64,000 nt of DNA, from positions 9,478-73,477 of the forward strand of contig PCVY01000028.1 of assembly GCA_002787155.1 (NCBI GenBank), in the 5' to 3' direction. Made by a program: the position numbers and the translations under genes. The stretch is from Candidatus Abzuiibacterium crystallinum (GTDB lineage: Bacteria > Omnitrophota > Omnitrophia > Omnitrophales > Abzuiibacteriaceae). Shown in pieces: positions 44,700 through 64,000 of the stretch. Below the pieces are notes generated by a model. It saw only the letters and a list, made by a program, of their open reading frames with translations. It was not told the DNA's origin and made no database searches. The stretch's first letter is position 1, and every line of letters begins with the position of its first letter.

Positions 44700-45536
44700 T
44701 CATTTGGCAATCCTTTCAAAGTGACCTAAACGGTCCACTGTCTTCACTAACTTGAATTGACCCGCTGCCTCAATTTCTCGAATGAGCGGTTTCATGTAAG
44801 CGGGTGCATCGGCAAAAGTTCCTTCCCCGGAGCAGTCGTCAAAAAAAACGGCTCCGCCCACGCGGACACGTTTACCAAACCGTTCAAAATCACTTTTAAC
44901 AGCATCGTAAGTATGTTCCCCATCTATGATGACCAAATCAACTGTACCGGTTTCACACTCAACAGTTCGAGAATCTCCGACAAGCACATGAACTTGAAAG
45001 CCAAATTGCCGGCATTTCTCCGTTAATTGCACATCAAAAGGTCGTTTATTCTCCTTGTGAAGACGAGACTCTTTTTCGCCAATATCAATGGACCAAACCG
45101 TTCCTTTTTTACCCATTGCCGCAGCCATTAAAAAGGTAGTGCCTCCCTTGTAGCGTCCGATCTCAATCACTTTTGTTGCTTTCAGGCGCCGCAGTGTATC
45201 AAATAAATAAGCAGCCATACGAATGGTCAAATCCGAAACACCGCTGTTTAAGTTATTGCTTGCATGTAGTCCAACCAAATGCTCAAAACACAAATCATGA
45301 GTGACCGGAATATCAAACGTCAAATGATCCAAATCAGGCGTCCGGTTTAAGAGCGGCCCGACTGTTTCAATACCCAAAGCTAAATCACGCTCGATAAACG
45401 CCCGTGCTAAAAATTTCTGTATAAAGCGGGGTGTGAAGATTTTAAGCATTCGGCGAATTCCTTTTGCCAAACCAAAACGCCACCTATTGATATGATATTT
45501 CAAAGCATTCCACCAAGCATCAGATGACATCGGCAA
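44700..45536 (-). CDS. Class I SAM-dependent methyltransferase (Methyltransf_24-like), a candidate glycan chain-terminating methyltransferase
   Basis: VIEIGRYKGGTTFLMAAAM and IIDGEHTYDAVKSDFERF match the Methyltransf_24 pattern. The gene is immediately downstream of wzm. Confidence 0.6.
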   Translation of the reverse strand: MPMSSDAWWNALKYHINRWRFGLAKGIRRMLKIFTPRFIQKFLARAFIERDLALGIETVGPLLNRTPDLDHLTFDIPVTHDLCFEHLVGLHASNNLNSGVSDLTIRMAAYLFDTLRRLKATKVIEIGRYKGGTTFLMAAAMGKKGTVWSIDIGEKESRLHKENKRPFDVQLTEKCRQFGFQVHVLVGDSRTVECETGTVDLVIIDGEHTYDAVKSDFERFGKRVRVGGAVFFDDCSGEGTFADAPAYMKPLIREIEAAGQFKLVKTVDRLGHFERIAK

Positions 45537-46344
45537 AACTCTTCTCCATGCGTTTAAAATAGTACATTCCGCTCACACAAATAACGCAGGCAATCAACCC
45601 AGAAAAAATGATCATGCCTTGTAATTCATTTGATTGACCAAAAAGTGCCCACCGAAAACCCTCAATGACACCGACCATGGGATTTAACCCATATAAAAAA
45701 CGCCATCCCTCCGGCACCAAGCTGCTTGGATAAGCAATGGGCGTAGCAAAAAACCAAAATTGAATTAAAAATGGAATCGTGTATCTCACATCTCGATACC
45801 TGACGTTCAGTGCGGAAAGCCAAAGTCCGACTCCCAACGCCGTCATAAAAGCTAACACCATAAAGATGGGAAGATATATCACTGAAATCAATAACGGCGT
45901 CTGGTAATACACCATCATGCCGATCAGGACCAGAAATGCAAAAAAGAAATCAACGACGCCGGAAAAAGTGGCTGAAAGAGGCATTGCCAGTCTGGGAAAA
46001 TAAACTTTTGTTACCAGTTGTTGGTTAACGATTAAAGTATTAGCAGATTCTGTGACTGCGTGAGAGAAAAATTGCCAAGGTAATAGCGCGCTATAAGCAA
46101 AAATAGGGTAAGGAATACCGTCAGATGGCATTTTTGCCAAATGACCAAAGATCACGGTGAAAATCACCATCGTTAAGAAAGGCTGTAAGATAGCCCAAGC
46201 GGCACCGATGATGGTTTGTTTATACCTGACTTTGATATCTCGCCACGTCAGAAAAAAAATCAACTCGCGTGCTTGCCATAACTCCTTTAGGTTTAAAGGA
46301 ATCCAGCCGCTGCTTGCTTTGATCGTTGTCATGGATTCTTTCAC
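45520..46344 (-). CDS. wzm: ABC-2 type glycan exporter permease Wzm/KpsM/TagG-like
   Basis: The 274 aa product has 6 predicted TM helices. N-terminal …ELWQARELIFFLTWRDIKVRYKQTIIGAAWAILQP… is typical of ABC-2 permeases. It pairs with wzt in the same operon. Confidence 0.8.
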   Translation of the reverse strand: MKESMTTIKASSGWIPLNLKELWQARELIFFLTWRDIKVRYKQTIIGAAWAILQPFLTMVIFTVIFGHLAKMPSDGIPYPIFAYSALLPWQFFSHAVTESANTLIVNQQLVTKVYFPRLAMPLSATFSGVVDFFFAFLVLIGMMVYYQTPLLISVIYLPIFMVLAFMTALGVGLWLSALNVRYRDVRYTIPFLIQFWFFATPIAYPSSLVPEGWRFLYGLNPMVGVIEGFRWALFGQSNELQGMIIFSGLIACVICVSGMYYFKRMEKSFADVI

Positions 46345-50688: not shown

Positions 50689-53190
50689 TTACTCTTGATT
50701 TTCCATTTGAAAATATCGATCCCAATTAATGTGATAGGCTACCAACTTATTGGGAGGTAAATCAGTCTGCTGTTCCGTTAAAGGTGTAAAAAACTTGAGA
50801 TCAACAGCTTTTAAATAATACAAACGATACAGAACCGACCTCAATAAATCGGGAAACCCGACAACAGCCGTATAGGTATCCGGATACTCGAGAAGTAAAA
50901 CCGAAGTTGAATAAAGACCCATCCCCTTCATTCGCTTCTCAATCAAATGATCCTCTTCAACGTACATTAAACTGAATGGTCTTAAAGTCAAATTTTCTTT
51001 TTCATTATACAACAAGGCATCTTTCAGAACTAAATTAACAGCTAGGTTCTCTTCAAAGAATAATTCGTCTCCCGTTGATCGAAGAAGTTTTCTTTCGGGT
51101 CCATATTGCCAGTTATCCGTGACTAACTGAAGATGTTGCTTTAAAAAACGCCTGTCACCTATTTTTTTGTTTTGTCTGATCAATTCAGCTGCTCGATCAA
51201 AATCCCAATTAACCAGGTAAGATAGCCCGATGTTGCGAAAGATAAGGTCATCATAAATGAAAACGCAGCCGGGCGGCACCGGTTGCTCCGGGTGGGTTAA
51301 TCGTATTAATTCCTCGTACTGCGTTTTGGTAAGTTCTGGCGGCCCTTCGGCTGGCAGTTTTGATTTTGGAACACTAAGAACATTTAAAATTAACTGATTG
51401 ATCCTAGCAGCCCTCAACCCTAAATTCTCCAAGAAAACCTCGGCTTTATTTCCGGTGGTGGAGAGCATGCGCCAAATACTTAACGCAAGGAACTCATTCG
51501 CGGTCATGAAGGCCTGTGCCATCCAATAATTTTGATGACTGTATTGGCTGCCGCCATCTAACATGGTGCTTCTTTCGGCAATCGCATTGATAAAGTAACC
51601 GGGGTCAAACCACGAGTAAACAATGGTGTCTTTCGGCGTTTCTTTTTTAATATCGGTCAAAACTTGATTCCAAGTATCATTCATCACCTGTTCGTTGTTA
51701 AATACAACCACAGAAATATACTGAGCATACGCCACTGGAGGCATAACACAGCAAGCCAACAAAGCAAAAACAGCGGCAGGTAATTTCCAATCCCGTTTTG
51801 CCCCCCATTGATGTTTGATCATTTCAAGCGCATGATGTACAAAAAACGAAAAGAAAAGCGCAAAGGGCAGCACCAATAACACACTAAAACGAACTGCCTG
51901 CAAACTCAGGATTGCCGACGGTAGAAAAAAAGCCGTAAAAAAAAGAAATTCTGAAAAACGGAACTGGCTGCGTTGACACCAGGTGGTATAGGCCATGATG
52001 ACAAACCCCAAAACCACCCATACAAAACTCAGATCATTTCCTACCAGGTAAATCACTTTTCTCACAGATGCCGGATCCAATTCCGCGATGAACATAAGGG
52101 TGTTGGGCCAAATATCAAGCGATGAGCCGCTTGCTCTCACCCGCTCAAAAAGGAAGAATTTTTCTTGAAGCGACAATAAAAATGGATGACTGGGCAACAA
52201 GATAAAACTAAAGCACACCGCCGAAATGAAATAGCCGCTCAGCCACTGTAAATACTTTTGATTTCTTTGCTGATTGAAAAAAATTTCATAAAGCCCGGCA
52301 ATCAAGACGCTGACTGATATCACTAAAAATAAATAATGCCAAGCTTCCCAAAAAAATGCATAAATAACTGTCACAAATCCCGCCAGAAGAGAGCTGGCCA
52401 TAATAAACCGACGCCGGCGCAGCGGGTAAAACAATAACAATAAGACAATGAGAGGAAAAATAAGTTGATAAGGATCGTTATCATAACTGCCCAACGCGCT
52501 CCGCTGAAGATAAATAGGCGATAACGATAAGAATGCAGCGCCTGCAAAGGCAGCTAAAAAATTAAGCTCTAAGACAGCAGCGAAAAGAAAAAAAAGTAAA
52601 ATGGACAATACTGCAAGAAATATCGGATACCAAGCAAGGAGATCTACCAAAGCTGCTTTTTTAAAAAATAGTTTAAAGAAATTGGCCCAGGCAGCTCCCA
52701 GATATGGATGCAGGGTAATATTTTCCCACGAACCATCTGGGGCTTTCCTAAGGGGATTGAAAAACTTATTCTGACGAAATTTCTCACCGATGTGGCCCGT
52801 CCGCATAATATTCTCTGTTAATTGGTAATATAAATAAGCATCTGCACCTAATAAATAGAAATGGTTCTGTCGAACGCCCCCATTCTCTCTCAGTAGTTTT
52901 TTCTCGGTCTCAGCGGTTAAATTTAGAAATTGCAGCTTATCTTCGGCCATTGCCAACTTCATCCGCTCATCTGTCAATCGATTAAGCTGGGTTGTATTGA
53001 GGTGAGAATTTTCCGACTTTAACAACTGACGAACATGTTTTTCAGCCATTCCATAAGCAATCGATTCGGCTTTTTGGTGAATCTCTTGTGCGGTTAAACG
53101 GTTCGCATTTATCCGGTAACGAATGCGGTGATAGATGCCGAAAGCAATGACCAGCATAATCAAAATCAAATAAAACATGGGACGCTTCAT
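50689..53190 (-). CDS. STT3/AglB/PglB-family oligosaccharyltransferase-like membrane protein (OTase-1) with a degenerate WWDYG motif
   Basis: The 833 aa product has N-terminal TM helices. An EL1-like acidic motif LLGADAYLYYQLTENI is present (compare SNDGYAFAEGARDMI of PglB). There are about 12 TM helices and a TIxE-like FIAE segment. The C-terminal periplasmic domain carries SWFDPGYFINAIAERSTMLDGG, which aligns with PglB [21 protein letters not shown]. The start is trimmed to MKRPMFY to abut the upstream GT4 gene. Confidence 0.65.
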   Translation of the reverse strand: MKRPMFYLILIMLVIAFGIYHRIRYRINANRLTAQEIHQKAESIAYGMAEKHVRQLLKSENSHLNTTQLNRLTDERMKLAMAEDKLQFLNLTAETEKKLLRENGGVRQNHFYLLGADAYLYYQLTENIMRTGHIGEKFRQNKFFNPLRKAPDGSWENITLHPYLGAAWANFFKLFFKKAALVDLLAWYPIFLAVLSILLFFLFAAVLELNFLAAFAGAAFLSLSPIYLQRSALGSYDNDPYQLIFPLIVLLLLFYPLRRRRFIMASSLLAGFVTVIYAFFWEAWHYLFLVISVSVLIAGLYEIFFNQQRNQKYLQWLSGYFISAVCFSFILLPSHPFLLSLQEKFFLFERVRASGSSLDIWPNTLMFIAELDPASVRKVIYLVGNDLSFVWVVLGFVIMAYTTWCQRSQFRFSEFLFFTAFFLPSAILSLQAVRFSVLLVLPFALFFSFFVHHALEMIKHQWGAKRDWKLPAAVFALLACCVMPPVAYAQYISVVVFNNEQVMNDTWNQVLTDIKKETPKDTIVYSWFDPGYFINAIAERSTMLDGGSQYSHQNYWMAQAFMTANEFLALSIWRMLSTTGNKAEVFLENLGLRAARINQLILNVLSVPKSKLPAEGPPELTKTQYEELIRLTHPEQPVPPGCVFIYDDLIFRNIGLSYLVNWDFDRAAELIRQNKKIGDRRFLKQHLQLVTDNWQYGPERKLLRSTGDELFFEENLAVNLVLKDALLYNEKENLTLRPFSLMYVEEDHLIEKRMKGMGLYSTSVLLLEYPDTYTAVVGFPDLLRSVLYRLYYLKAVDLKFFTPLTEQQTDLPPNKLVAYHINWDRYFQMENQE

Positions 53191-54335
53191 TTTAAACAAT
53201 CCTTTTTTGCAACTTGTTCGCAGCATTTCAAAACTTCTTTAGCGGCTAGCTTCCATGTAAACAATTCGGCACGTCTTCGCGCCTGATCAATCATGGCATG
53301 GCGTTCGGCCGGCTCCATTTCAAGCAAAACTTGCAAATGATGCGCTAAATCCTGGTCATTATTTTCTTGGAAGTAACCAACACAATCTCCGCCGACTTCG
53401 GGGATAGAAGCACAGCGAGTCGTTAAAACCGGAACACCCGCTGACATCGCTTCTAAAATCGGAAGTCCAAAACCTTCGTAACGTGAGGGTAAAACAAATA
53501 CATCCGCACGGCGGTACAGCGGGAGTAAGTCCTGCTGAGAAAGAAATGGTACTCGACGGTAACGATTATTTGGAATTTCTTCACATGCACGTTTTAGCAT
53601 GGGCTCACCCAGGCGGGGTTGGCCAACCAGAATCAATTGATGAGAAATCTGAGACAATAACCGTTTGAAAGCACTTACCAAACATGGTAAGTCCTTGTGC
53701 GGATAGGAGTTAGCAACACACAATATATAAGGTTTTTGGCTTTGTAAAACAGACTGCACTGTTGGATGGATTTTTTTTTGGTGCTCTGATTGAAATAACG
53801 GCGAAACACCGCATGAACTAACAGCCACTTTGGTCGGCGGAACGTCTAAAAATTGCACAATTTCACGTTTCGAAAACTCGGAAAGTGTGATAATTATTTC
53901 GCATTGACGGCTCGCGCTAATGACTAGAAAATGAGTGACTAGTCGTGATAGAAAGTTTAAATCTTCCGGAAATCGTTTGTATTGCATGTCAAGGATGGTG
54001 ACAATTTGAGGGCAATGCGCATACAGCGGAGCCGTATAACCCGGCGACCACAAAATATCTACTTTGGCTTGGTAGGCGCGTATCGGTAGTTCCGTTTGCT
54101 CACGAATGATCCTGACATAGCGGTTAGTGGCATGAAATGAAAGCTTTGAAAAGGTGACGTTTGGGTATTTTCCGAATTGGTTTTGCAGCGAGTCATGGTT
54201 GTCCTGATGTGTAAAAAGACAAAACTCAACACTGGGCTGCATGGCAACCATCGCCTGCAGCGTTTCGCGTAAAATAGTTTCTGATCCACCAACTTCATTT
54301 GGAATAAGAAACAGCGCATTCACGCCGATTCGCAT
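53187..54335 (-). CDS. GT4 family (GT-B) glycosyltransferase
   Basis: PSRYEGFGLPILEAMSAGVPVLTT is the GT4 signature. The protein is 382 aa. It is directly upstream of OTase-1 with a 4-bp overlap. Confidence 0.75.
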   Translation of the reverse strand: MRIGVNALFLIPNEVGGSETILRETLQAMVAMQPSVEFCLFTHQDNHDSLQNQFGKYPNVTFSKLSFHATNRYVRIIREQTELPIRAYQAKVDILWSPGYTAPLYAHCPQIVTILDMQYKRFPEDLNFLSRLVTHFLVISASRQCEIIITLSEFSKREIVQFLDVPPTKVAVSSCGVSPLFQSEHQKKIHPTVQSVLQSQKPYILCVANSYPHKDLPCLVSAFKRLLSQISHQLILVGQPRLGEPMLKRACEEIPNNRYRRVPFLSQQDLLPLYRRADVFVLPSRYEGFGLPILEAMSAGVPVLTTRCASIPEVGGDCVGYFQENNDQDLAHHLQVLLEMEPAERHAMIDQARRRAELFTWKLAAKEVLKCCEQVAKKDCLK

Positions 54336-54377: not shown

Positions 54378-54851
54378 CTAGGACAAATAACCTAACAGTG
54401 CTCTGCGTTTTTTGTTTTGCTCATACACGTCTTCGCCTAAAACTTGTTTTGCCAACTCTTCTTTGTTTTGGCCGTTGTAAAAGTCGTAATCCATTACCGC
54501 CAAGACTTTCAACACAATTGGTAACGGCAACTCTAACATCGTCGGATCCGCTGCAAGCTGTTCGTTAATTTTGGTTGCATAATAACTTGCGGGAAGCAAA
54601 ATAGCCGCGTTGTCCCTGATTTTAAATAACTCAATCATGGCTCGGACAACTTCCGCTTGGTCCGTTTCACTCAACCGATCCCAAGATTTTGCAGACTTTG
54701 TCAGTTGGCCTGCCTGTTGCCGTAGGTTCGTAGGCACCTGCAATGCCTGCATAAGCTCAAGCAAATCTACTTGCTCCTCGGCCCATAATACAGGCATTGC
54801 TGCAGTCGCCCAAAAACCAACTGTTAACAGAAAGATCAACCGGCGCTTCAT
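54378..54851 (-). CDS. Hypothetical secreted or periplasmic protein
   Basis: Signal-peptide-like MKRRLIFLLTVGFWATAAMPVLWA. The start is trimmed to an internal Met to avoid overlap. Confidence 0.4.
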   Translation of the reverse strand: MKRRLIFLLTVGFWATAAMPVLWAEEQVDLLELMQALQVPTNLRQQAGQLTKSAKSWDRLSETDQAEVVRAMIELFKIRDNAAILLPASYYATKINEQLAADPTMLELPLPIVLKVLAVMDYDFYNGQNKEELAKQVLGEDVYEQNKKRRALLGYLS

Positions 54852-54870
54852 CGGATCAAGCATTCGGTCA

Positions 54871-55092
54871 TTACTTTCTCTTGCCGGCTGCTTTAAGTCT
54901 TGCAAGCCGCATCTTTTGTTTTGCGGCAGCGGAATGATGTCTTCCGTACATCGGATTTTTCTTGCCTTTTACCGCCCGACTAATTTTTTGTTTAGAACTA
55001 CTCGAATGCTTTCTTCCATAAAAAGGGTTGCCTTTTCCAGAAGCTAGTTTACTCATTAATCTTTTAGTTTTAGCTGAATGTTTTTGTCCCAT
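54871..55092 (-). CDS. Small, highly basic protein with two NUMOD3-like motifs (a putative DNA-binding module)
   Basis: The 73 aa product repeats N-P-[FM]-Y-G-R-[KH]-H-S-x3-K-Q-K-[IM]-[SR]-x-A twice. This resembles the NUMOD3 motif (NP.YGK.HSEETK.KIS.A.KG) found in homing endonucleases. Confidence 0.4.
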   Translation of the reverse strand: MGQKHSAKTKRLMSKLASGKGNPFYGRKHSSSSKQKISRAVKGKKNPMYGRHHSAAAKQKMRLARLKAAGKRK

Positions 55093-55123: not shown

Positions 55124-56290
55124 TTACCTATACTTCTTAAAAATTTCCAATGCTTTTCTAGTTTGCTGATCTTCTCCTTCTACACCTTCAACCAGATACG
55201 GCACTTCCTCATCCGGAACAATCCCGACCTTATCAATGACCCTCCCGTTTGGTGATATATATCTTGCCGTTGTTAATTTCATGGCAGTTTTATCATCTAA
55301 CGGAACAACAGACTGAACAGACGCTTTTCCGTACGTTTTCATCCCCACAACTATTCCGCGTTTGTGGTCTTGTATAGCAGCTGAGAAAATTTCGGAAGCG
55401 CTGGCAGAATGTTCGTTAACCAACACGATTAAATCGCAATCCGTTAGATGTTTACTTCCATCTGAGAAATGCTCTTTCTTTTGAACATCAATGCGGCTTT
55501 CAACCGAAACTATTTTCTTGTCACCCGGTAAAAAACGGCTTGCCAAATCAATGGCGGCTGTCATTAAACCGCCTTGATTGTTTCTCAGATCAATAATCAA
55601 CGCCTTCATACCCTCCTTTGTCAATTTCTTGATTGCTTTATCAATTTGATCGGCTGTGTGTTCTTGGAAATTATCAATTCTAAGATAGCCGAGATGTCGT
55701 CCAGCCATCCGGACATCGTTAATAGCACTAATCTCCACCAATTCGCGGATAACCTTAATATCAATGGGCTCTGGTACCGTCGGCCTCTGAACCCTTACCA
55801 TCACCTCGGTGCCAGCTTCCCCGCGCAACAATTCGGCTACTTCAGCCATCCCTAAACCAATCACATCTTTACTGTCTACCTTGAGAATCATATCCTTTAC
55901 TTCCAATCCTGCTTTCTGAGCAGCGCTGGCAGGCTTAATTTCTTTGATAAAGATTTGGTTATCAACCATCTCTAATACGGCTCCCAAGCCTGAGTACTCT
56001 CCTTTCATATCAATCTGCAGCAGCTTGTAATGTTCCTCATCAATAAAAACGGTATAAGGGTCCATACCCTCCAACATCCCTTTCACTGCATGATAGAGCA
56101 GTTGGCGTGCATCTTTTTTCTCAACATAGCCTTCCAAAACGGCGCCAATGGCACGTGAGAAAAGTTTTAATTCCTCCAGAACATCGTAACTTTCGCTTTG
56201 CACAGCGGCAGCAGACGAATGTCTGCTGTTAATAGCGGACATCAATAAAATTAAAGAACCTATTAAAAAAAATCCAACCTTTTTCTTCAT
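55124..56290 (-). CDS. S41-family C-terminal processing peptidase (Prc/CtpA-like) with a PDZ domain
   Basis: Signal peptide. A PDZ-like segment is present. Catalytic-region motifs GGLMTAAIDLASRFL and HSASASEIFSAAIQDHKRGIVVGMKTYGKASVQS (Ser/Lys dyad context). The protein is 388 aa. Confidence 0.75.
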   Translation of the reverse strand: MKKKVGFFLIGSLILLMSAINSRHSSAAAVQSESYDVLEELKLFSRAIGAVLEGYVEKKDARQLLYHAVKGMLEGMDPYTVFIDEEHYKLLQIDMKGEYSGLGAVLEMVDNQIFIKEIKPASAAQKAGLEVKDMILKVDSKDVIGLGMAEVAELLRGEAGTEVMVRVQRPTVPEPIDIKVIRELVEISAINDVRMAGRHLGYLRIDNFQEHTADQIDKAIKKLTKEGMKALIIDLRNNQGGLMTAAIDLASRFLPGDKKIVSVESRIDVQKKEHFSDGSKHLTDCDLIVLVNEHSASASEIFSAAIQDHKRGIVVGMKTYGKASVQSVVPLDDKTAMKLTTARYISPNGRVIDKVGIVPDEEVPYLVEGVEGEDQQTRKALEIFKKYR

Positions 56291-56303
56291 CTTACACTCG
56301 CTT

Positions 56304-57308
56304 TCAGTTTGCGCTTAAAAATTTCTCGTGCCAATACAAAATATCTCCGGTACGGGTTGTGACGCAATTAATTAATAGTGCTTCTGAACGATTTCTGAGT
56401 CGAGCTAAGCTTTGAACCGTGTAAGCACTAGACTGCAATGTAAGAAGACCCGACTGAACATAATCATGCAAACTTTGAGCTTCACTATCATCTAGGGGAA
56501 AGGCGTTTTGAAGCGTTTCGGCGACAGAACTTAAACTAATAAAATAATGGTCATCAGGCGTGCGTTCGACGCCATCCTCGCCGGCACGAAAACGTAATAT
56601 TTTCTTAACCAAACTTTCCGACATCCCAATTGAAACTAAGATAATTGGTGAGGCGGTATTTAAATTAAGCAGACCTGAGCCATACAAGGTCAGATAGGGT
56701 GATAAACGCTCGTAAATAGCGGGCGTCATCCCGCGAATGAAGTTCATTTCTTCAAGGATATCCAAAGGTTCATTTTTAGGCTGATAAGGCGGTTTCAGTC
56801 TCATATAATATTTTTTCTCCGCCCCCGCTTCATACGCGTGATCATCCTCGTCCATCCAGTCAAGTAAGGCGTAAGCAATGTGAGCAGCCTCTTCTTTTGA
56901 CAAACCACCTGCCAACTGAAATAAATTGCTTAAGATGCGTGCGGACGTGATTAATCTTAAACTGATTTTACTTTCCTCATCGATCATGCCGCTATAAACT
57001 GTATTCCCGATTTGATAGCCGACAGTAAAATAGCCATCCCCAACTGGAATTTCGTGAAACGCACTTTCATTAACACTCCAACCATCATTTAAGACATCGG
57101 GTAACTGCGATTGAACATCTTTCATTGCCAACACTTGAATAGCCTTTTGAACACCTGCTTCTGCTATATAACGCAATTTTGACTTGGTTTCGAAGGTTTG
57201 TGCCATTTTTAGCTTCCCCTGGACTATACGGCCAACCACGGACGTAAAAAGAGCTAACAAGAGTAAAACCCAAATGGCTAGAATCAACAAACTCCCTCTT
57301 TTATCCAT
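56304..57308 (-). CDS. gspK: Type II secretion system minor pseudopilin GspK-like protein
   Basis: N-terminal hydrophobic helix (LLILAIWVLLLLALF). The conserved GspK motif LLNLNTASPIIL (PxNxNTAS) is present. The protein is 334 aa. Confidence 0.6.
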   Translation of the reverse strand: MDKRGSLLILAIWVLLLLALFTSVVGRIVQGKLKMAQTFETKSKLRYIAEAGVQKAIQVLAMKDVQSQLPDVLNDGWSVNESAFHEIPVGDGYFTVGYQIGNTVYSGMIDEESKISLRLITSARILSNLFQLAGGLSKEEAAHIAYALLDWMDEDDHAYEAGAEKKYYMRLKPPYQPKNEPLDILEEMNFIRGMTPAIYERLSPYLTLYGSGLLNLNTASPIILVSIGMSESLVKKILRFRAGEDGVERTPDDHYFISLSSVAETLQNAFPLDDSEAQSLHDYVQSGLLTLQSSAYTVQSLARLRNRSEALLINCVTTRTGDILYWHEKFLSAN

Positions 57309-57315
57309 AAAACTT

Positions 57316-57660
57316 TTATTTGTCCAATAACTTGAGTTGACGACTCACGTCTGTCAGCTTGTCTGACATATCATTGATCTTAACCTCCAACGCATTCATC
57401 TTTTCCGTCAGCTGTTCAATGCTGGCGTGCACTTTGTCAAAATGCCGTTTCATATATATATCGACACCTTCGGGCTCATATTTGCCTCCTATTCTGATAA
57501 CCTCACGGTCCTCAGCCATGTTATAGACAATCCCGTATTTTTTAATGCCTTCCGAAGTTTCATCCGATTTTCTCTCCTCCGCAAAAACAGACATGCACAC
57601 GACGCCTGACAACACGCTCATCATGGCTAAGCCCACTATGAGGTTAGGTAGTTTTTTCAT
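57316..57660 (-). CDS. Small secreted coiled-coil protein, hypothetical
   Basis: Signal peptide MKKLPNLIVGLAMMSVLSGVVCMSVFA. The C-terminal region is a heptad-rich helix. The protein is 114 aa. It overlaps the OTase-2 start by 17 bp. Confidence 0.4.
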   Translation of the reverse strand: MKKLPNLIVGLAMMSVLSGVVCMSVFAEERKSDETSEGIKKYGIVYNMAEDREVIRIGGKYEPEGVDIYMKRHFDKVHASIEQLTEKMNALEVKINDMSDKLTDVSRQLKLLDK

Positions 57661-60421
57661 CTAATTCTCCTTGTTCAATTTCAGTAATATGGTCAATTTG
57701 TTCCCAATTAATTTTAAATATTTTAACGGTTGTTTTTTGATCACTTTCTTGATAAACGGGCTTAAATAAAGAAAGCGTGATGCCATCCAAATAATACAAT
57801 TGATACAGCACTGAACGGATCAATGCCGGATCCGCGACAACTGCGCGCAACTGGCCCTGACGTTTAAAAAGCAAAACTGACAATGATACTTGGCTTTGAG
57901 GAAAAACATGCTCTACCAGTTTTTGATCAGTGACTTCAAAAACACTATAGGGCTGAATTCGTCCTACCCCGCTTGGCGGCTGTATCCAGATGCTTTGTGT
58001 TTGCATGTCCAGCAAAACACCGTTCTCGAATAATATCTTGTTCTCTTTTTGTTCACGAATCCCTGCTTCCGGCAAATATTTCCAAGCACCTTCAATCGTA
58101 TCGAACACCTCACTTAAATAGCCTTGAAATTTTTTCTCCTTCACTTCTTCATATCTGGTTAAATTTGTTGTGAGCCACCGATCTGCTGCCTGACCACCCA
58201 AGAAAGTTGGGCTCAAACCCACTTCCAGTGGCACTGAAGATTGCGATGCCTGAGGTGTCACGGGCGCTTGACTGTTTATTTGGTGATTAGGAATAAGAAG
58301 AGGATTTGTCCAGAAGGGTGTCTGTAAAACATTTTGAACCCAGTTACCCAAAGCAAGAATGATAGGTTTTTGAGTCAGTTGTTTTTTTTGCTGAAACTCT
58401 TTTGCCTTCCTAAAATTCCACTTTGCAAGGAGGGTCAAGGCTAAATTTTTTTCCATCAAATCATTATAAAGAAATAGATAAGAAGGCGGCGGTTGCTCAA
58501 TTTGTATCAAATTAACAAATGCTTTTTGTTCATCCGCTGACATTTTTCCGCTTAATTGCGCCATCAGGCTTGCTGGATCTAACGTCATGGAATCAGTAAT
58601 TAATTCGATGGCATCTGACAACTCCCAATGGCGCTCAAGCAGAAAATCAAGAGGCGCATTGCCTTTTGTGTTAACCATATTAAATAATCCAACTGCTGTT
58701 TTCTCATCAGAAGAAAGAAAAGCTCTGGCCATCCAATAGGTTTGGTGATTTTGCTGGGTGCCGCCGTCAATAACGGTGCGGCGTTCGGCGACTGCATTAA
58801 TAAAATAGCCGGGAGGCCACCAGCTATCAATAATGGCATTCGGGGGACTCTTCTCTTTTAAGTTCAGTAGACTATTATACCAAACATCATTCATAATCCT
58901 ACTCACCCCTTGCGCCCCGATATGTCCCAGAACCAACGGTACCGGAAGAAACAGACAGATCATGAGGAGCCTGGACACATATTCAAAAATCCTGATCCGA
59001 GGTGAATGTGAAAGAAAAATATTTCTAACGTTTAAGAGAGACTGCTCGATCGCATAGAACCCAAGGGCTGTCATGAAACCAAATGGGACTACCAACAAAA
59101 TAGCAAAACGCTCTGTTCGTAACGCCAATAAAATGGTAGGGATAGAAAATATAAAAATCACAAGCCATGCGAAACCCAACTCGGCCTTTTTCTCTTTTAA
59201 AAGAATGGCAATCAAGTAGCAAATGCCGTAAAGAGCAACCATTGCCATCACGGGGCTGCTGCATAAATACACCAGCTTTTTTATCGTCAAAGAATTGGTT
59301 TCGGCCACTGTTAAAAACGCATTTGGCCAAACCGAGACATCTGTGGATGAAAACATGGGGAGAAAGGTAAAAGACTCTTGAAAGACTTCCCACAAACCTC
59401 GCGGGGTCAAAAACAACACTGCCGCCGCCAATGTTGTGATGCCGTAAATAAGTCCAAACAAAAACATATGGTGCTTCATTCTAACGGCCAATTGGATAAA
59501 TCCAATTGCCAAACAGATGACGAATGCAAGCATAAACATATAAATCCATCCTGCCCAAAACAGCGTGTAGACCCCCGTGAGAAAACCAGCCGCAATCGGA
59601 TATCGAAATTGCTTTCTGTTTCCCTGTCGGCAGGCGAGGCACATGAGTCCGAAAATTAGGAGCTGGAATAACGGTTGGTAAGGATCGGTGTCATACCACC
59701 CAAGCGCACTCCTTTGCAAGTAAGCGGGAGCCAGCATCAAAGTAACGAGCCCTAGAAAAAGGGCGGATCCGCTTAAATTAAGCATCCGCCCAACCACAAA
59801 AAAAAGAAGACAACTTGCGCACACGAGAACAAGCGGAAAATATGAAAGCCCCTCCATCATATCAATTTTAGGATTCAAAGCATGAATGATCTTAAACCAG
59901 GAATAGCCTAAATATGGATGAAGCGTCTTGAGTGCCCACGCTCCGCTGGGGGCTTCACGAAGAGAGTTGAAAAAGCGCCCCGATTGATACGCGGATGATA
60001 ACTGACCCTCCTTTACAATCCGTTGAGTAAGGCTATAATAGTAATAAGAATCAGCGCCCAATAAGTAAATTCTTGAGTGTCCTTCATTACCGCCCCCTTT
60101 TGCTATTTGACTTGCCAATTTCTCAACACTTTCTTGAAATTGATCGTGGCTATTTTCAATAATTCTATCTGCTTGTTCATGCACCAATTGGTTCTTTAAT
60201 TTTTGATCAAGTCCTGGCAGTGAAGTTTCGTCTATGTTTTTTTTGATTTGACTGACAATTTTATTGTAAACCGCATCCCGCGCTAACTTGTGCGCAACAA
60301 AAGGTGAAACTTTGCGCAAGGTCTCTGTTCTAAAAAAACAGGCAATCAATCCAGATAAGATAATCAGCCCAATCCAGAAAAGACGCGACAGAAGACGATT
60401 GTCTTGCTGAAAAGTATGCAT
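57644..60421 (-). CDS. STT3/AglB/PglB-family oligosaccharyltransferase-like membrane protein (OTase-2). The WWDYG motif is replaced by SWWPPGY.
   Basis: The 925 aa product is a paralog of OTase-1. It has YLLGADSYYYYSLTQRI (EL1 acidic motif), a TIxE-like TVAE, and IIDSWWPPGYFINAVAERRTVIDGG aligning with PglB WWDYGY…TLVDGG. A long C-terminal periplasmic extension follows. Confidence 0.65.
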   Translation of the reverse strand: MHTFQQDNRLLSRLFWIGLIILSGLIACFFRTETLRKVSPFVAHKLARDAVYNKIVSQIKKNIDETSLPGLDQKLKNQLVHEQADRIIENSHDQFQESVEKLASQIAKGGGNEGHSRIYLLGADSYYYYSLTQRIVKEGQLSSAYQSGRFFNSLREAPSGAWALKTLHPYLGYSWFKIIHALNPKIDMMEGLSYFPLVLVCASCLLFFVVGRMLNLSGSALFLGLVTLMLAPAYLQRSALGWYDTDPYQPLFQLLIFGLMCLACRQGNRKQFRYPIAAGFLTGVYTLFWAGWIYMFMLAFVICLAIGFIQLAVRMKHHMFLFGLIYGITTLAAAVLFLTPRGLWEVFQESFTFLPMFSSTDVSVWPNAFLTVAETNSLTIKKLVYLCSSPVMAMVALYGICYLIAILLKEKKAELGFAWLVIFIFSIPTILLALRTERFAILLVVPFGFMTALGFYAIEQSLLNVRNIFLSHSPRIRIFEYVSRLLMICLFLPVPLVLGHIGAQGVSRIMNDVWYNSLLNLKEKSPPNAIIDSWWPPGYFINAVAERRTVIDGGTQQNHQTYWMARAFLSSDEKTAVGLFNMVNTKGNAPLDFLLERHWELSDAIELITDSMTLDPASLMAQLSGKMSADEQKAFVNLIQIEQPPPSYLFLYNDLMEKNLALTLLAKWNFRKAKEFQQKKQLTQKPIILALGNWVQNVLQTPFWTNPLLIPNHQINSQAPVTPQASQSSVPLEVGLSPTFLGGQAADRWLTTNLTRYEEVKEKKFQGYLSEVFDTIEGAWKYLPEAGIREQKENKILFENGVLLDMQTQSIWIQPPSGVGRIQPYSVFEVTDQKLVEHVFPQSQVSLSVLLFKRQGQLRAVVADPALIRSVLYQLYYLDGITLSLFKPVYQESDQKTTVKIFKINWEQIDHITEIEQGELDEKTT

Positions 60422-60458
60422 TGATATCCGCCAAAGTTAATATAAAATAATTGAGCCA

Positions 60459-60719
60459 TCGGGGAGTTAATTTTATCAATCCCCGCTGGCTCATCCCAGC
60501 GCATTGCTTTTTAATGCGCGTGGGATTACCAATGAAACCCCATACCAGCCCCGCTTGATCGTGACTGGTATGGGGTGAGAGGTCGGGGAAACTCCTCGAC
60601 CTCTCAAATAATTGAGGTGTTATCCCAGCGGGGATTGTTTCCGCCAAAGGCCAGATCTCCGCCGGAGGGACGGATCAGTCCTTTGGCTGAGGTCCTCTGG
60701 CGGAAGAATTAACTCCCCG
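60459..60719. ncRNA. GC-rich, highly structured element with nested inverted repeats, a candidate structured ncRNA / cis-regulatory leader or a MITE-like repeat
   Basis: Outer 13-bp inverted repeat CGGGGAGTTAATT (60459-60471) / AATTAACTCCCCG (60707-60719). An inner 13-bp pair CAATCCCCGCTGG (60477-60489) / CCAGCGGGGATTG (60625-60637). Several internal hairpins (60495-60526, 60538-60575, 60577-60604, 60639-60705). Local GC is clearly higher than the AT-rich flanks. It lies in the divergent intergenic region between OTase-2 and a GT2 gene. Confidence 0.4.
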
Positions 60720-60781
60720 TTGAATCAAATAATTTAGTAACTGATATTGATTAGCCGATAAATTAATCACAAAAAGGGCAT

Positions 60782-61486
60782 ATGAACACCCAAAAAATAC
60801 TTATCATTGTTCCCGCACTTAATGAAGAAAAACTCATCGGAGACCTTGTCCGTGAAATTAAGGCCGCCTATCCGTATGATGTTTTGGTCATTAACGATGG
60901 CTCGCTTGATCAAACTGCAGTTTATGCTGTTCAAGCGGGTGCCAAAGTTGTAACACATCCTTATAATCTTGGGATTGGCGGTGCCGTTCAAACAGGTTTT
61001 AAGTTTGCTGAGAAAGAGGGATATAAAATTGTTGTACAAGTTGACGGCGACGCTCAACATGACCCGCGATACATCCAGCCTCTTATAGAACCTGTCTTAA
61101 AAGGGCAATTTGATTTGTGTATTGGATCTCGTTTTATTAAACCTTCCGACACGTTTAAATCTACATTCATTCGGCGAATTGGTATCCGTTTTTTTGCTGT
61201 TCTATTGGGCTGGCTAACCGGTGTCCATGTAACGGACCCAACATCCGGCTTTCGAGCCACCGGCCCTGCTCTGATTAAACCATTTTCAACGAACTACCCC
61301 GTCGATTTTCCGGAGCCTGAAACCATTAAAATCGCAAAACGCTTAGGCGCTCATGTTGGCGAAGTCCCTGTGCAGATGCGTCAGCGTCTAAGCGGTCATT
61401 CGTCGATTCGCTATTTTCGAACGGTTTACTACATGATCAAAGTCACTATAGCCATACTCATTGATGCTTTAAGACGTAACAAATAA
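60782..61486 (+). CDS. GT2 family glycosyltransferase, DPM1-like polyprenyl-phosphate sugar synthase
   Basis: N-terminus ILIIVPALNEEKLIGDLV…VLVINDGSLDQT…VVQVDGDAQHDP (DxD). The protein is 234 aa. A small DUF2304-type membrane protein gene follows. Confidence 0.7.
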   Translation: MNTQKILIIVPALNEEKLIGDLVREIKAAYPYDVLVINDGSLDQTAVYAVQAGAKVVTHPYNLGIGGAVQTGFKFAEKEGYKIVVQVDGDAQHDPRYIQPLIEPVLKGQFDLCIGSRFIKPSDTFKSTFIRRIGIRFFAVLLGWLTGVHVTDPTSGFRATGPALIKPFSTNYPVDFPEPETIKIAKRLGAHVGEVPVQMRQRLSGHSSIRYFRTVYYMIKVTIAILIDALRRNK

Positions 61487-61495
61487 AGGTGATTT

Positions 61496-61846
61496 ATGAA
61501 TGTAAATTTCTTTGCAATTTTAAGCGCTTTTCTTATTTTATGTTTGGTTATTGAACTGATTCGACAACAAAAAATGACCTTTAAATATTCTTTATCGTGG
61601 TTGAGCGCCAGCCTTCTTGTTATCATTCTTGCTTTTAATGAAAAACTCTTAGCTAAAATCTCTACTTTTTTTGGCTTTGAACTGCTGAGTAATTTTATTT
61701 TCTTTTTGCTTCTTTTATTTTTTGTCTTCTTAAGTCTTCGGTTAACGATATTTATTAACGAACAAAATAACCGAAGTGAAACTTTGGCTCAAACGGTTGG
61801 TATTCTTGAGCATAAAATTAACGAGCTCGAGAAAAAAACACACTAA
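61496..61846 (+). CDS. Small membrane protein (DUF2304-like), a GT2-associated partner
   Basis: The 116 aa product has two or three TM helices and a C-terminal coiled-coil tail. It forms a conserved gene pair immediately downstream of a DPM1-like GT2 gene. Confidence 0.5.
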   Translation: MNVNFFAILSAFLILCLVIELIRQQKMTFKYSLSWLSASLLVIILAFNEKLLAKISTFFGFELLSNFIFFLLLLFFVFLSLRLTIFINEQNNRSETLAQTVGILEHKINELEKKTH

Positions 61847-61854
61847 GTCCTTTG

Positions 61855-62523
61855 TTAGAAAAACTCAAATCCCGCTCCTCCCTGAGTCGTATCAGATTCG
61901 CTCTTCTCTGGCGTTTTCATAATGTCTTCAATCCGTCGCGCTAAATCGTCGCGGCCGATCTGACGGAGCAGTGTTATTGACTTGAGCGCAGCTCCTCGCT
62001 TTTCTGCCGCGACATAGGCAAGCCCTAATCCATACTGCGCTTCCACAACGTCTGGGTCTCGCTTGACTGCCTTTTCAAAATACTGAACTGCATCGTACCC
62101 GTTTTGTTTCTGTAATTCTAACCAACCTAATCCCGTGTAGCCTTTTGCAAAGTTTGGATCGGCTTCAATTGATTTTTCAAAAAATTCTTTTGCTAAAATC
62201 GGATCCTTAGCCACCCCGGCATAATAGGTCCCAATATTAAAATATGGGTCGCCGTAATGCGGATTCAGTTCGGTCGCCGTCATAAATGCGTTCATTGCAC
62301 CGATGATACCTTCTTCGGTTTTTAGAAGCGCCACACCCAAGGCATTGTGAAATTGCGGGATATTGGGATTCGCTCGTATGGCTTTACGAAATGATTCAAT
62401 GGCTAATGGGATCTCGCCTTGATTTATGAATTCAATACCAGCTTCGAAATAATGACGCTCATCTTGCGCTCGCAGCGGTCCAGCCGTTAAAAAGAAACTT
62501 AAAAAGAAAATCAAAATGATCAC
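61855..62523 (-). CDS. Tetratricopeptide-repeat (TPR) protein, secreted
   Basis: Signal-peptide-like N-terminus. Repeated TPR signatures are present (…AIESFRKAIRANPN…, …AKEFFEKSIEADPNFAKGYTGLGWL…, …AVQYFEKAVKRDPD…). The protein is 222 aa. Confidence 0.7.
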   Translation of the reverse strand: MIILIFFLSFFLTAGPLRAQDERHYFEAGIEFINQGEIPLAIESFRKAIRANPNIPQFHNALGVALLKTEEGIIGAMNAFMTATELNPHYGDPYFNIGTYYAGVAKDPILAKEFFEKSIEADPNFAKGYTGLGWLELQKQNGYDAVQYFEKAVKRDPDVVEAQYGLGLAYVAAEKRGAALKSITLLRQIGRDDLARRIEDIMKTPEKSESDTTQGGAGFEFF

Positions 62524-63179
62524 GTCTCTTCCTCCGAGGGAATCGGCACCGTTTTATTCTGGCCTCCTGTTGTCATAGGTACTTCGGCGGGCATTACTTC
62601 AACCCCTATCTCATCTTCAGTTTCTCCGTCGTTTGTAATAAAAATGCGTGACATGGATAGACTGGCGTTAATCACATCTGAGTTTTTCCCTTTAGGTTCC
62701 AGCAAATACTGAGTGATGCGAAATAAAAAATCTGAATCTTCAAGTGCCTGCATAAATTCCAGCATGTTCCGCAACTTCCCATTACACTCGAGCGTTGTTT
62801 TGTACTCTTGCATAATTGGATTGCCTTCCACATCGCCAGGCTGCACATTTGTGATATTGATGGACATTGCTGCAGCAATTGATTCAATTTCTCTTAAAAG
62901 ATCCGCAATAATCTCCTCTTGAGCTTTCTCGCCACTATCGAGATAGTGCTGATACTGCCTGTATTCACGCAAAATACTGTCTTTGTAGGACAGAACACGA
63001 ATGCTACGCTTTATTGCTTGAGACTTCGCATCAATTTCAGCATCCAGCACTTTTTGTTCTGCCAAAATCGGCCCCAGAACAAGCAGATCCATGAGCAGCA
63101 TGAGCACGCATATAATCGCAGCGATTATTAATATTTTTTCTTTTTTTTGTAACTTGTTATAAAAATCGTTAATATTCAT
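62520..63179 (-). CDS. GspM/PilO-like type II secretion or type IV pilus inner-membrane assembly protein
   Basis: Short cytoplasmic N-terminus, a single TM segment (ILIIAAIICVLMLLMDLLVLGPIL) and a periplasmic coiled-coil domain. A 4-bp overlap with the upstream gspL-like gene. The protein is 219 aa. Confidence 0.45.
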   Translation of the reverse strand: MNINDFYNKLQKKEKILIIAAIICVLMLLMDLLVLGPILAEQKVLDAEIDAKSQAIKRSIRVLSYKDSILREYRQYQHYLDSGEKAQEEIIADLLREIESIAAAMSINITNVQPGDVEGNPIMQEYKTTLECNGKLRNMLEFMQALEDSDFLFRITQYLLEPKGKNSDVINASLSMSRIFITNDGETEDEIGVEVMPAEVPMTTGGQNKTVPIPSEEET

Positions 63180-64000
63180 TAAATTCCCTCAACCAAGGTA
63201 CATTCGATGGAAAAATCTGCTACTTCTTTTTGTCCTTCCCGCCTTGATTTTGTTTCTTTGGTTTGCACATCCGTAAAGAAATTAGATTCTTCTAATTCAG
63301 TGACGAATGCAAAAATACGTGACATGGAATCAGCTGTCCCTCCAATGGTAATGGCGCCCTCCTTGTCGTAACTAAACCTAGACAAGTAAATATCATCACC
63401 AATCATGGAATTTATCTTCTCAAAGACATGGAGACCTCTGCCCCTTTTACGCAAGAGTTCTCGAACAGCCCGACTTTTGGTTGATTTTTCTTCTAATTCC
63501 CTGGCTTGCTCAAATGTTGACTCATTTAATGTTTCCAATTTCTTGCGGTGCTCATTTTTAATATAACTCTTCACTAATAAAAAAACGCTGATTAATAGGA
63601 AGACTGTCATGATCAAAATGCCAAATTCGATAACATCTTTTCCGCTTTTTCGAAAGGACCGCCTTATTTTAATTTCCTTTGGAATTAAATCGATCCTTGT
63701 CAGGCTTAGCATCTCGTAGGAGGAGAAGACATCAAAAAATGAATCATCTGTGGCTTGTGCAATCATTTGAGATACTTCACTTCCCGTTTGAAATCTATCT
63801 TTTGCTTGAATGAATGAAACTTTTGTTTCATGATCTTTAATATAAGGAATGGCGCCTTCTATTCCCTGTTTGATTAATTCGTGGTACTCAGGTATGCTGG
63901 CAACGAACAGCATTTTAATCACTTGCCCCACACCTTGATCTTGATAAGCGACGATAGATTTACTTAATTCCGAGATAAACTCCTTGACTGCCGCTTCGCG
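63179..64000 (-). CDS. GspL-like bitopic secretion-system protein (cytoplasmic domain, TM, periplasmic domain). Partial: the N-terminus lies beyond the window end.
   Basis: The reading frame stays open upstream of the annotated GTG (63931) to the window edge. A central TM segment (ILIMTVFLLISVFLLV) separates cytoplasmic and periplasmic domains of roughly 100 aa each. It is adjacent to the gspM-like gene. Confidence 0.45.
   Translation of the reverse strand, partial: REAAVKEFISELSKSIVAYQDQGVGQVIKMLFVASIPEYHELIKQGIEGAIPYIKDHETKVSFIQAKDRFQTGSEVSQMIAQATDDSFFDVFSSYEMLSLTRIDLIPKEIKIRRSFRKSGKDVIEFGILIMTVFLLISVFLLVKSYIKNEHRKKLETLNESTFEQARELEEKSTKSRAVRELLRKRGRGLHVFEKINSMIGDDIYLSRFSYDKEGAITIGGTADSMSRIFAFVTELEESNFFTDVQTKETKSRREGQKEVADFSIECTLVEGI

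Follow-up and report, generated by a model that had tools for sequence, protein, structure and literature searches.

In Candidatus Abzuiibacterium crystallinum, a member of the Omnitrophota, an STT3-family glycosyltransferase that reads WWPPG in place of the WWDYG motif is encoded among the genes of a type II secretion system (T2SS)-like pseudopilus. The stretch analysed here (the window; 64,000 nucleotides of contig PCVY01000028.1) carries in its 3′ part, from 55124 to 64000, the 3′ half of a conserved Omnitrophota T2SS-like pseudopilus operon that has no secretin gene in cis. Comparison of related loci indicates that the enzyme, referred to as OTase-2 for its kinship with oligosaccharyltransferases (OTases), a secreted tetratricopeptide repeat (TPR) protein and a periplasmic serine protease form a conserved unit, which is absent from a sister clade that has the same operon. 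The identities of the genes, the fold and motif states of the enzyme, the conserved linkage and the exchange of one protease for another are directly established. The reading of this arrangement that we favour, which is tentative and given slightly less than an even chance, is that of an accessory periplasmic maturation module built onto the pseudopilus operon and coupled to it, whose STT3 enzyme would act on a component or client of the machine.

The pseudopilus locus and its conservation

An earlier note on this DNA had set out a gene order, with strands and coordinates, for 55124-64000, all of which was borne out by the listing of open reading frames (ORFs). Its assignments to the gsp genes were upheld by profile searches of Pfam and NCBIfam, in which scores were compared with gathering or equivalog cut-offs; the GspM/PilO-like call is weak and the NCBIfam score of GspK falls below its cut-off. 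On the minus strand, the series begins with the C-terminal part of a PilM-PilN fusion (PilMN; 273 codons, 63179..64000, running past the window end; PF05137 PilN, 2.2e-15). This is followed by a PilO/GspM-like bitopic membrane protein of 219 amino acids (aa; 62520..63179), with weak matches to NF040576 GspM (2.9e-4) and PF04350 PilO (0.042), and by the secreted TPR protein (222 aa, 61855..62523), which has a signal peptide and matches several TPR families of Pfam (TPR_11, 7.5e-19). The gene for the PilO/GspM-like protein shares 1 nt with that of PilMN and 4 nt with the TPR gene. Such a gene fills the slot 3′ of PilMN in every locus type distinguished below, and its product in type C loci matches T2SSM_b at 1.4e-5.

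OTase-2 itself (925 aa, 57644..60421, minus strand) is followed on the same strand by three further genes. These encode a small secreted coiled-coil protein (sm114; 114 aa, 57316..57660) with a signal peptide and without a Pfam or NCBIfam family match, a GspK-like minor pseudopilin (334 aa, 56304..57308) and an S41 C-terminal processing protease with a PDZ domain and a signal peptide (388 aa, 55124..56290). The GspK-like protein matches PF21687 T2SSK_1st at 4.9e-22 (79.1 bits against a cut-off of 26.2) and NF037980 GspK at 5.5e-26 (91.8 bits, under the cut-off of 130), and the protease matches TIGR00225 prc at 7.6e-91 (304.6 bits against 218.6) and PF03572 at 5.7e-55. Since the start of sm114 overlaps the stop of the STT3 gene by 17 nt, and gaps of 7 and 13 nt separate sm114 from gspK and gspK from the S41 gene, STT3-sm114-gspK-S41 forms an operon-like string, in which sm114 appears from its position to be translationally coupled to STT3. 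Each partner in the module carries a signal peptide. A promoter and terminator scan of 54.3-64 kb was uninformative, with promoter-like sites fewer than in shuffled sequences.

The sequence past position 64000 was read from the parent contig (L001, 86.7 kb), which was reached by exact-sequence look-up of the PilO-like protein. As had been predicted, gspE, gspF, gspG, two minor pseudopilin genes and the rest of PilMN are found there, in the order rest of PilMN, two genes with prepilin motifs, GspG, GspF and GspE, with the F1Fo ATP synthase operon beyond. The complete PilM-PilN fusion (496 aa, L001:8511-10001) joins PF11104 PilM_2 to PF05137 PilN in the architecture of a GspL-like assembly platform protein and matches TIGR01175 pilM at 2.2e-16, below the cut-off. 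GspG (L001:7017-7457) scores 148.9 bits with TIGR01710 against a cut-off of 88.85 and has the prepilin motif G/FTLIE. The two small pseudopilin genes bear the prepilin motifs G/LTLVE and G/FTLIE; the GspJ-like product has a weak GspJ/T2SSJ match (2e-7, 31 bits against 64.85), the GspI-like one is identified by its prepilin motif only, and no GspH was recognised among the minor pseudopilins of the operon. GspE and GspF are clear in family and below the equivalog thresholds, with best NCBIfam matches to GspE at 570.5 bits (cut-off 630; PilB 535) and to GspF at 309 bits (cut-off 424). Neither the secretin GspD nor GspC nor the prepilin peptidase GspO is encoded in the 64-kb window or, in the loci examined, between the ATP synthase operon and the module. 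The published T2SS-like locus that precedes giant genes in Omnitrophota was considered as the same locus and rejected, as it has gspD, rcpC and a rotamase gene and is a different cluster.

The GspE ATPase (726 aa, L001:3594-5774) has an MshEN domain at its N-terminus and a PilZ domain at its C-terminus; the two are described as domains that bind cyclic di-GMP (PMC12448109). This suggests, by analogy, that the T2SS-like machine may be under cyclic di-GMP control. The same domain architecture is kept in GspE of four related loci (L002, L003, L007 and L010).

The arrangement recurs well beyond this genome. A word-indexed protein search returned only 17 relatives, the nearest full-length ones about 35% identical, and the relatives' contigs have the same gene order around STT3 proteins 27-36% identical to OTase-2. 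When one genome for each GTDB species was scanned with a pattern, 80 loci emerged, most of them titled Candidatus Omnitrophota or Omnitrophica and many others carrying the generic bin labels 'uncultured bacterium' or 'uncultured Planctomycet*'. A profile search run exhaustively over 1.84 billion representatives gave 1,184 clusters (50% identity) at E <= 1e-30. Loci were annotated with the proteins of the window, and 43 of them were well flanked, that is, with no less than 4 kb of sequence upstream of STT3 and 5 kb downstream of it. In 41 of these 43, STT3 adjoins T2SS genes, in two architectures; it adjoins the TPR gene in 39, and a periplasmic serine protease is encoded on the same strand within 3.5 kb of it in 35. 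The claim that STT3 is embedded between T2SS-type genes is therefore borne out, and the embedding is kept across the phylum. The arrangement is far beyond chance. In a converse test seeded with PilMN on metagenome contigs, STT3 was present in all 20 type A loci with room for it and absent from 27 type C loci.

Three architectures were distinguished. In type A, that of the window, the ATP synthase operon is followed by gspE, gspF, gspG, gspI, gspJ, PilMN, PilO and TPR genes in one direction, by a glycosyltransferase family 2 (GT2) gene and a DUF2304 gene in the opposite direction, and then, in the first direction again, by STT3, sm114, in some loci a second GT2 gene, gspK, the S41 gene and p161. 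In type B, the series from ATP synthase through gspE, gspF, gspG, gspI, gspJ, gspK, PilMN and PilO to TPR is convergent with a protease gene followed by STT3. In type C, the same series without TPR leads from PilO to PNPase, FtsK, RodZ and MiaB genes, and TPR, STT3 and protease genes are all missing from the locus. Thus gspK lies between gspJ and PilMN in types B and C and has moved between STT3 and the S41 gene in type A. The divergent pair of GT2 and DUF2304 genes, sm114, gspK, p161 and often a second GT2 gene are additions of type A to the module. The T2SS-like operon ends with the TPR gene, which is present or absent together with STT3.

In a neighbour-joining tree of PilMN, types A and C are each monophyletic and are nested in a paraphyletic type B, such that two state changes suffice. 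This nesting makes the STT3-T2SS linkage look ancestral; on the same sequence tree, type C looks like one loss or relocation and type A like one rearrangement that moved gspK. The linkage outlasts the rearrangement from type B to type A. A relocation of STT3 further downstream in type C, a conceivable alternative to loss, was looked for with blastn and blastp; no type C locus overlapped an 'orphan' STT3 locus. Two type C contigs (L139 and L142) carry two complete copies of the operon in tandem.

An STT3 enzyme with an altered acceptor motif

OTase-2 exceeds the gathering score of two Pfam families, STT3 (PF02516, 2e-18, 67.6 bits against 24.5) and the PglB/AglB core (PF21436, 2.9e-6, 28.3 bits against 23), and its top NCBIfam match is archaeo_STT3. 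Its closest solved sequence relative is AglB of A. fulgidus (AfAglB; 9.3e-14 by HMMER), PglB being marginal at 2e-3. In an AlphaFold 2 model (predicted local distance difference test score 76.7, predicted template modelling score 0.74), the best Foldseek match in the PDB is PglB (5ogl; E 9e-18, target template modelling score 0.66), followed by STT3A, STT3B and AglB. The top 20 PDB matches are all PglB, STT3 or AglB structures (E 9e-18 to 1e-7), and AftA, DPY19 and ArnT are orders of magnitude weaker. The modelled structure thus assigns OTase-2 to the STT3 family, with a GT-C fold made up of an N-terminal multi-pass membrane part and a C-terminal periplasmic globular domain. Membership of the Wzy_C/O-antigen ligase family, which includes PglL and TfpO, was also considered and rejected; only STT3 families match OTase-2 at E <= 0.1 in Pfam and NCBIfam.

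The motifs of the STT3 family were checked singly against the list given in PMC8342417. The catalytic core, with the acidic residues for metal binding and acceptor activation, is present: D124 in the first DXD motif (LLGADSYYY) and D244-T-D246 in the second (GWYDTDPY) have AfAglB D47 and D161 as HMMER partners, E374 in TVAE supplies the Glu of the TIXE/SVSE motif of external loop 5 and aligns with the region of AfAglB E360, and R438 is the donor-phosphate Arg. D124, D244 and D246 are invariant in a 14-sequence alignment (A1), as are R438 and the Glu of E374, around which orthologues read TVGE or SVGE. The DGGK motif, a donor-binding motif of the bacterial and euryarchaeal type, is kept in part, as D552-G-G-T in OTase-2 and as DGGT or DGAT in orthologues, with the Lys not kept. 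In the region of the DK/MI motif, the HMMER alignments stop short or are unreliable. In the second DXD motif, about 7 orthologues among the 80 loci have Lys or Arg in place of the leading Asp (GWYKNDP, GWYRTDP), and these may be catalytically altered or inactive copies. Within the periplasmic domain, OTase-2 also has an insertion, about 80 residues long and modelled with low confidence (residues ~687-766, window 58120-58360), which in alignment A1 it shares with P0002 and P0010 only; most orthologues have 820-860 aa.

To our knowledge, STT3 enzymes are held to be universally sequon-directed, with WWDYG as a defining motif in all three domains of life. In OTase-2 this motif is absent. Its place is taken by W534-W535-P536-P537-G538 (58808-58822), and HMMER pairs SWWPPGYF of OTase-2 with SWWDYGHW of AfAglB and SWWDYGYQ of STT3A. 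All 80 genome loci read WWPPG, WWCPG or WWSPG at this position. WWxPG was likewise found in 147 of the 160 proteins kept from a profile search that was not biased by the motif, the variable residue never being Asp (WWPPG 110, WWSPG 20, WWCPG 6, WWAPG 4, WWTPG 2). WWDYG occurs in 3 of the 160, which are assumed to be the distant matches of the first search (P0015-17), and WFDPG, the motif of a second STT3 paralogue in the window, in 2. In characterised enzymes, WWDYG and DK/MI form the pocket for the Ser/Thr at position +2 of the sequon (PMC8342417). Because a part of this pocket is WWPPG here, OTase-2 should not read N-X-S/T in the canonical way, and its sequence marks it as something other than a canonical N-X-S/T oligosaccharyltransferase.

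The second paralogue, OTase-1, is encoded at 50689-53226 on the minus strand (845 aa) and is 27% identical to OTase-2. Its motif, WFDPG, keeps the Asp and has Phe for the second Trp. The gene lies between two GT4 genes at the edge of a glycan-biosynthesis island (see below), and OTase-1 may transfer the glycan of the island.

Partners, candidate acceptors and readings of the module

Divergent from STT3 on the plus strand lies a gene for a GT2 protein like those that act on polyprenyl phosphate (234 aa, 60782..61486; PF00535, 2e-22), which occupies this place in the great majority of type A loci. The gene for a small DUF2304 membrane protein (116 aa, 61496..61846, plus strand; PF10066, 68.6 bits against 25.5) starts 10 nt past its end. 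The best NCBIfam matches of the GT2 protein, all below equivalog cut-offs, are PpgS (1.1e-31), AglJ (2.9e-25) and dolichyl-phosphate hexose transferase (7e-12); with NF058614 PpgS it scores 110 bits against a cut-off of 370, a best match and not an equivalog. PpgS (Rv3631) and the small membrane protein Rv3632 make polyprenyl-P-GalNAc for a GT-C enzyme (PMC3485146). The locus resembles this PpgS/Rv3632/Rv3779 system in its GT2 and small membrane protein, in a polyprenyl-monophosphate sugar and in transfer by a GT-C enzyme outside the membrane (PMC3485146); it differs in that the mycobacterial acceptor is arabinogalactan and the GT-C enzyme is not STT3, as well as in the modest score of its GT2 protein. 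The donor of AfAglB and euryarchaeal AglB is also polyprenol-monophosphate linked, which fits the adjacent PpgS/AglJ-like GT2 (PMC8342417). By these analogies, the GT2/DUF2304 pair probably supplies a polyprenyl-phosphate sugar donor.

The small secreted protein sm114 is encoded directly 3′ of STT3 in most type A loci. It ends in a C-terminal coiled coil and has the conserved core G-x-W-N-x-A-x-D-R...GG-x-Y-x-PEG-x-D-x-Y; it is a candidate partner or acceptor of the STT3 enzyme. In most type A loci the S41 gene is followed by p161, an exported protein of 161 aa (54378..54863, minus strand) without a Pfam match and with the conserved motif AVMEYDFYNGQNKDELA.

The protease is the member of the unit that varies. 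The S41 gene is co-directional with STT3 in 25 of the 43 well-flanked loci, and in 10 more a trypsin-like S1 protease is encoded instead, as at L071:9067-9816 and L077:9167-9883. In one type B lineage, the S41 slot, some 6 nt upstream of STT3 on the same strand, holds a secreted Trypsin_2 protease (PF13365, 4e-23). Such a non-orthologous swap at a fixed position argues for a functional pairing of glycosyltransferase and protease rather than mere inheritance.

Pairs of a TPR adaptor and an S41 protease are established in E. coli and P. aeruginosa. On this model, the TPR protein and the S41 protease might form a pair like NlpI-Prc or LbcA-CtpA that controls peptidoglycan hydrolases for passage of the pseudopilus through the cell wall, with STT3 modifying the pair, its substrates or a non-protein acceptor. 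As in those systems, a TPR protein and a periplasmic S41 protease occur together; the S41 protein is a bona fide prc-family enzyme, its swap for another periplasmic serine protease would fit a degradative role, and the TPR protein has a sub-threshold match to NlpI (6.8e-11; 42.2 bits against a cut-off of 250). However, its matches to PilW (1.7e-12), Tgl (5.5e-11) and MamA are equally weak, which reduces the NlpI match to generic TPR similarity. NlpI and LbcA, moreover, are lipoproteins, and the N-terminus of the TPR protein, VIILIFFLSFFLTAGPLRAQ, is a signal peptide without a lipobox Cys. The two genes are also split by STT3, the S41 protease is exchangeable for a trypsin-like one, no conserved peptidoglycan hydrolase gene lies in the locus, and nothing ties STT3 to such a pathway. 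The chance that the module serves as a gate of this kind is slim.

The maturation module named at the outset would work in several steps. On the cytoplasmic side of the membrane, the GT2/DUF2304 pair would attach a sugar to polyprenyl phosphate, and the lipid-linked donor would be flipped to the periplasmic face. There the STT3-like enzyme would move the sugar to an exported protein that is part of, or handled by, the pseudopilus machine, with a determinant in the acceptor that is not N-X-S/T. The same client would be presented or processed by the TPR protein and the protease. We infer here the nature of the donor, a protein as the acceptor and the coupling to the T2SS-like machine. The coupling is favoured by the near-universal adjacency, the TPR gene as a terminal, overlapping gene of the operon that co-varies with STT3, and the relocation of gspK into the STT3 string.

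Several observations weigh against this coupled module. The monophyletic clade of 27 type C loci has this operon with housekeeping genes after it and lacks the module, and so the machine does without TPR, STT3 and protease in cis. Two changes of state account for the three architectures, and few independent events therefore underlie the linkage. In type B, STT3 is convergent with the T2SS operon and is not co-transcribed with it, and in most type B loci the GT2/DUF2304 pair is not beside STT3. Immediately upstream of gspE, all three types have the F1Fo ATP synthase operon, an unusually stable synteny that spans very deep divergence. It is as conserved as the adjacency of STT3 and TPR and has no obvious functional reason, which makes adjacency alone weak evidence in the phylum. 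The sequon counts given below fall on the same side.

These facts of gene order would suit a different reading, in which STT3, TPR protein and protease are a syntenic passenger, a general envelope module (for example, one of glycosylation with proteolytic quality control) that happens to end a stable block of ATP synthase and T2SS genes. The equal conservation of the ATP synthase/gspE adjacency, the small number of changes on the tree, the type C operon without the module and the convergent STT3 of type B all agree with it. So does the second STT3 paralogue in the 50-kb glycan island of the window, which makes protein or glycan modification a broad theme there. Yet the relocation of gspK into the STT3-S41 string, found in a type A clade of 39 members, is hard to explain without selection for co-expression, and the TPR gene closes the T2SS operon, overlaps PilO by 4 nt and was gained or lost together with STT3. 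We regard a mere passenger as unlikely, though by no means far-fetched.

The earlier note had suggested pseudopilins or secreted substrates as targets of glycosylation. For pseudopilins, this would make STT3 a classical N-oligosaccharyltransferase that acts on sequons of GspG, GspI, GspJ and GspK as AglB does on type IV pilins. The position of STT3 among pseudopilin genes, directly before gspK in an operon-like string, the two sequons of the window's GspK and the one of the GspJ-like protein encoded just beyond it, and the archaeal precedent (PMC4371748) speak for it. N-X-S/T and D/E-X-N-X-S/T were counted in orthologues of GspG, GspI, GspJ, GspK, PilO, PilMN, TPR, S41, sm114 and p161 proteins and judged by the expectation from composition, by conservation of columns and by comparison of STT3-linked loci (types A and B) with type C. 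At the locus described here, the GspG, GspI-like, sm114, S41, TPR and p161 proteins have no N-X-S/T at all, the GspJ-like protein has one, GspK two (N80 and N306, neither positionally conserved among orthologues) and PilO three. Over the orthologues, sequons of pseudopilins and other locus proteins are at or under the expectation from composition. They are depleted in type A GspG (12 observed against 34 expected; any sequon in 17% of the proteins), the best column holds one in only 16-17% of pseudopilin orthologues, and the density in STT3-linked loci is no higher than in the STT3-less type C. D/E-X-N-X-S/T is nearly absent from the locus proteins.

The sequons searched for in the pseudopilins are thus neither enriched nor positionally conserved, nor in excess over the sister clade. 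With this null result, the sole computational signal that could support N-glycosylation of the pseudopilins is gone; the Asp of WWD, part of the Ser/Thr pocket (PMC8342417), is absent family-wide, and 27 related loci have the operon without STT3. Pseudopilin N-glycosylation is therefore unsupported by the sequences, and we consider it quite improbable. Pseudopilins may still be acceptors of a non-canonical enzyme, with which the sequon null is compatible.

Neighbouring elements, known systems and significance

Between the divergent GT2 and STT3 genes lies a palindrome-rich spacer of 360 bp (60422-60781), for which RNA folding gave a minimum free energy of -165.9 kcal/mol (z = -11.8). It contains an element of about 295 nt (60443-60736) with terminal inverted repeats of 30 nt (60443-60472 and 60707-60736) and nested hairpins. 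Rfam gave no match for the whole window at the gathering threshold or for the spacer at E <= 1, and the 64-kb window holds no second copy of the element. Since the orthologous GT2/STT3 spacer of three relatives measures 16-76 bp, the element is most simply taken as a genome-specific insertion that stands outside the conserved system. It may be an insertion like a miniature inverted-repeat transposable element, or a structured RNA in the 5′ region of STT3. On the other side of the string, between the S41 gene and p161, a basic ORF of 73 aa (54871-55092, minus strand) has two NUMOD3 motifs (PF07460, 1.8e-24) and was detected among the surveyed loci only in the window and in L027. NUMOD3 motifs are DNA-binding modules of homing endonucleases, and the ORF may be the remnant of a mobile endonuclease.

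The remainder of the window is taken up largely by one continuous glycan-biosynthesis island of about 50 kb (774-50684). It encodes NeuB and a UDP-GlcNAc 2-epimerase (nonulosonic acid), a DegT aminotransferase and an Asn-synthase-like amidotransferase. It further encodes three GT-C proteins of the PMT_2 type (17760-19340, 19347-20897 and 23938-25398), a B12/radical-SAM enzyme (21028-23034), sulfotransferases (35540-36607 and 37544-38491), at least five methyltransferases, Wzm/Wzt ABC export proteins (45520-46344 and 38512-39807) and many GT2 and GT4 proteins.

Among known systems, the nearest functional analogue is archaeal AglB, an STT3-family enzyme like OTase-2, which acts on type IV filament subunits; PglB and AglB are the nearest in structure, and AfAglB is the best sequence match among solved structures. 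It is unlike OTase-2 in that AglB has WWDYG, recognises N-X-S/T sequons and serves the whole glycoproteome, whereas OTase-2 has WWPPG, is bacterial, is embedded in an operon and goes with no sequon signal. We know of no case of AglB being encoded inside a pilus operon. PglB of Campylobacter has WWDYG and the MI motif, recognises D/E-X-N-X-S/T and is encoded in the pgl glycan-assembly cluster. It provides the best structural match (5ogl) and shares the catalytic acidic residues and a DGG(K)-type motif with OTase-2; the sequence similarity, in contrast, is marginal, and the sequon of PglB is the one that is nearly absent from the locus proteins.

In Bacteria, pilins are glycosylated by the Wzy_C-family O-oligosaccharyltransferases PglL and TfpO (PilO) and, in the case of Pseudomonas group IV pilins, by the GT-C arabinosyltransferase TfpW, none of which is an STT3 enzyme. 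These systems have in common with the locus that a transferase of lipid-linked sugars is encoded beside pilin genes, and TfpW is a GT-C enzyme in such a role. Unlike OTase-2, PglL and TfpO belong to the Wzy_C family, TfpW is not an STT3 enzyme, and none of the three has a protease and a TPR protein as partners. The statement in the earlier note that an STT3 enzyme in the role of a pilin OTase has not been described holds for Bacteria in the searchable literature. It does not hold for Archaea, where AglB, an STT3 homologue, N-glycosylates type IV pilins and archaellins, a trait that is apparently confined to that domain (PMC4371748). Under the names Omnitrophota, Omnitrophica or Velamenicoccus, the searchable literature yielded nothing relevant on STT3, oligosaccharyltransferases or WWDYG.

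A bolder form of the proposal can be put forward for the family as a whole. WWxPG enzymes would be a large, so far undescribed, mainly Omnitrophota clade derived from STT3, with a new acceptor determinant in place of the pocket that reads Ser/Thr; glycosyltransferase, TPR presenter and protease would be a unit dedicated to a pseudopilus that has no secretin in cis. This unit would carry out non-sequon glycosylation and cleavage of a component or cargo of the machine, with a simple polyprenyl-monophosphate sugar donor as in Euryarchaeota, and would represent a new type of protein glycosylation in Bacteria. Taken together, these propositions are rather unlikely to hold in full.

The WWxPG clade (more than 1,000 clusters), which has kept the catalytic core and lost the Asp of WWDYG, represents a natural experiment on the evolution of acceptor specificity in OTases, and its members are a possible source of enzymes with new specificity for glyco-engineering. 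The uncultivated Omnitrophota have members suspected of predation or parasitism, lifestyles in which an important role has been proposed for surface filaments and secretion (10.1101/2023.11.21.568195). The fixed link of STT3 with a T2SS-like pseudopilus, a TPR protein and an exchangeable protease offers a testable handle on the envelope biology of this phylum. If it is true that an STT3 homologue modifies proteins of a bacterial type IV filament, a trait that has been thought to be restricted to Archaea (PMC4371748) would extend to Bacteria.

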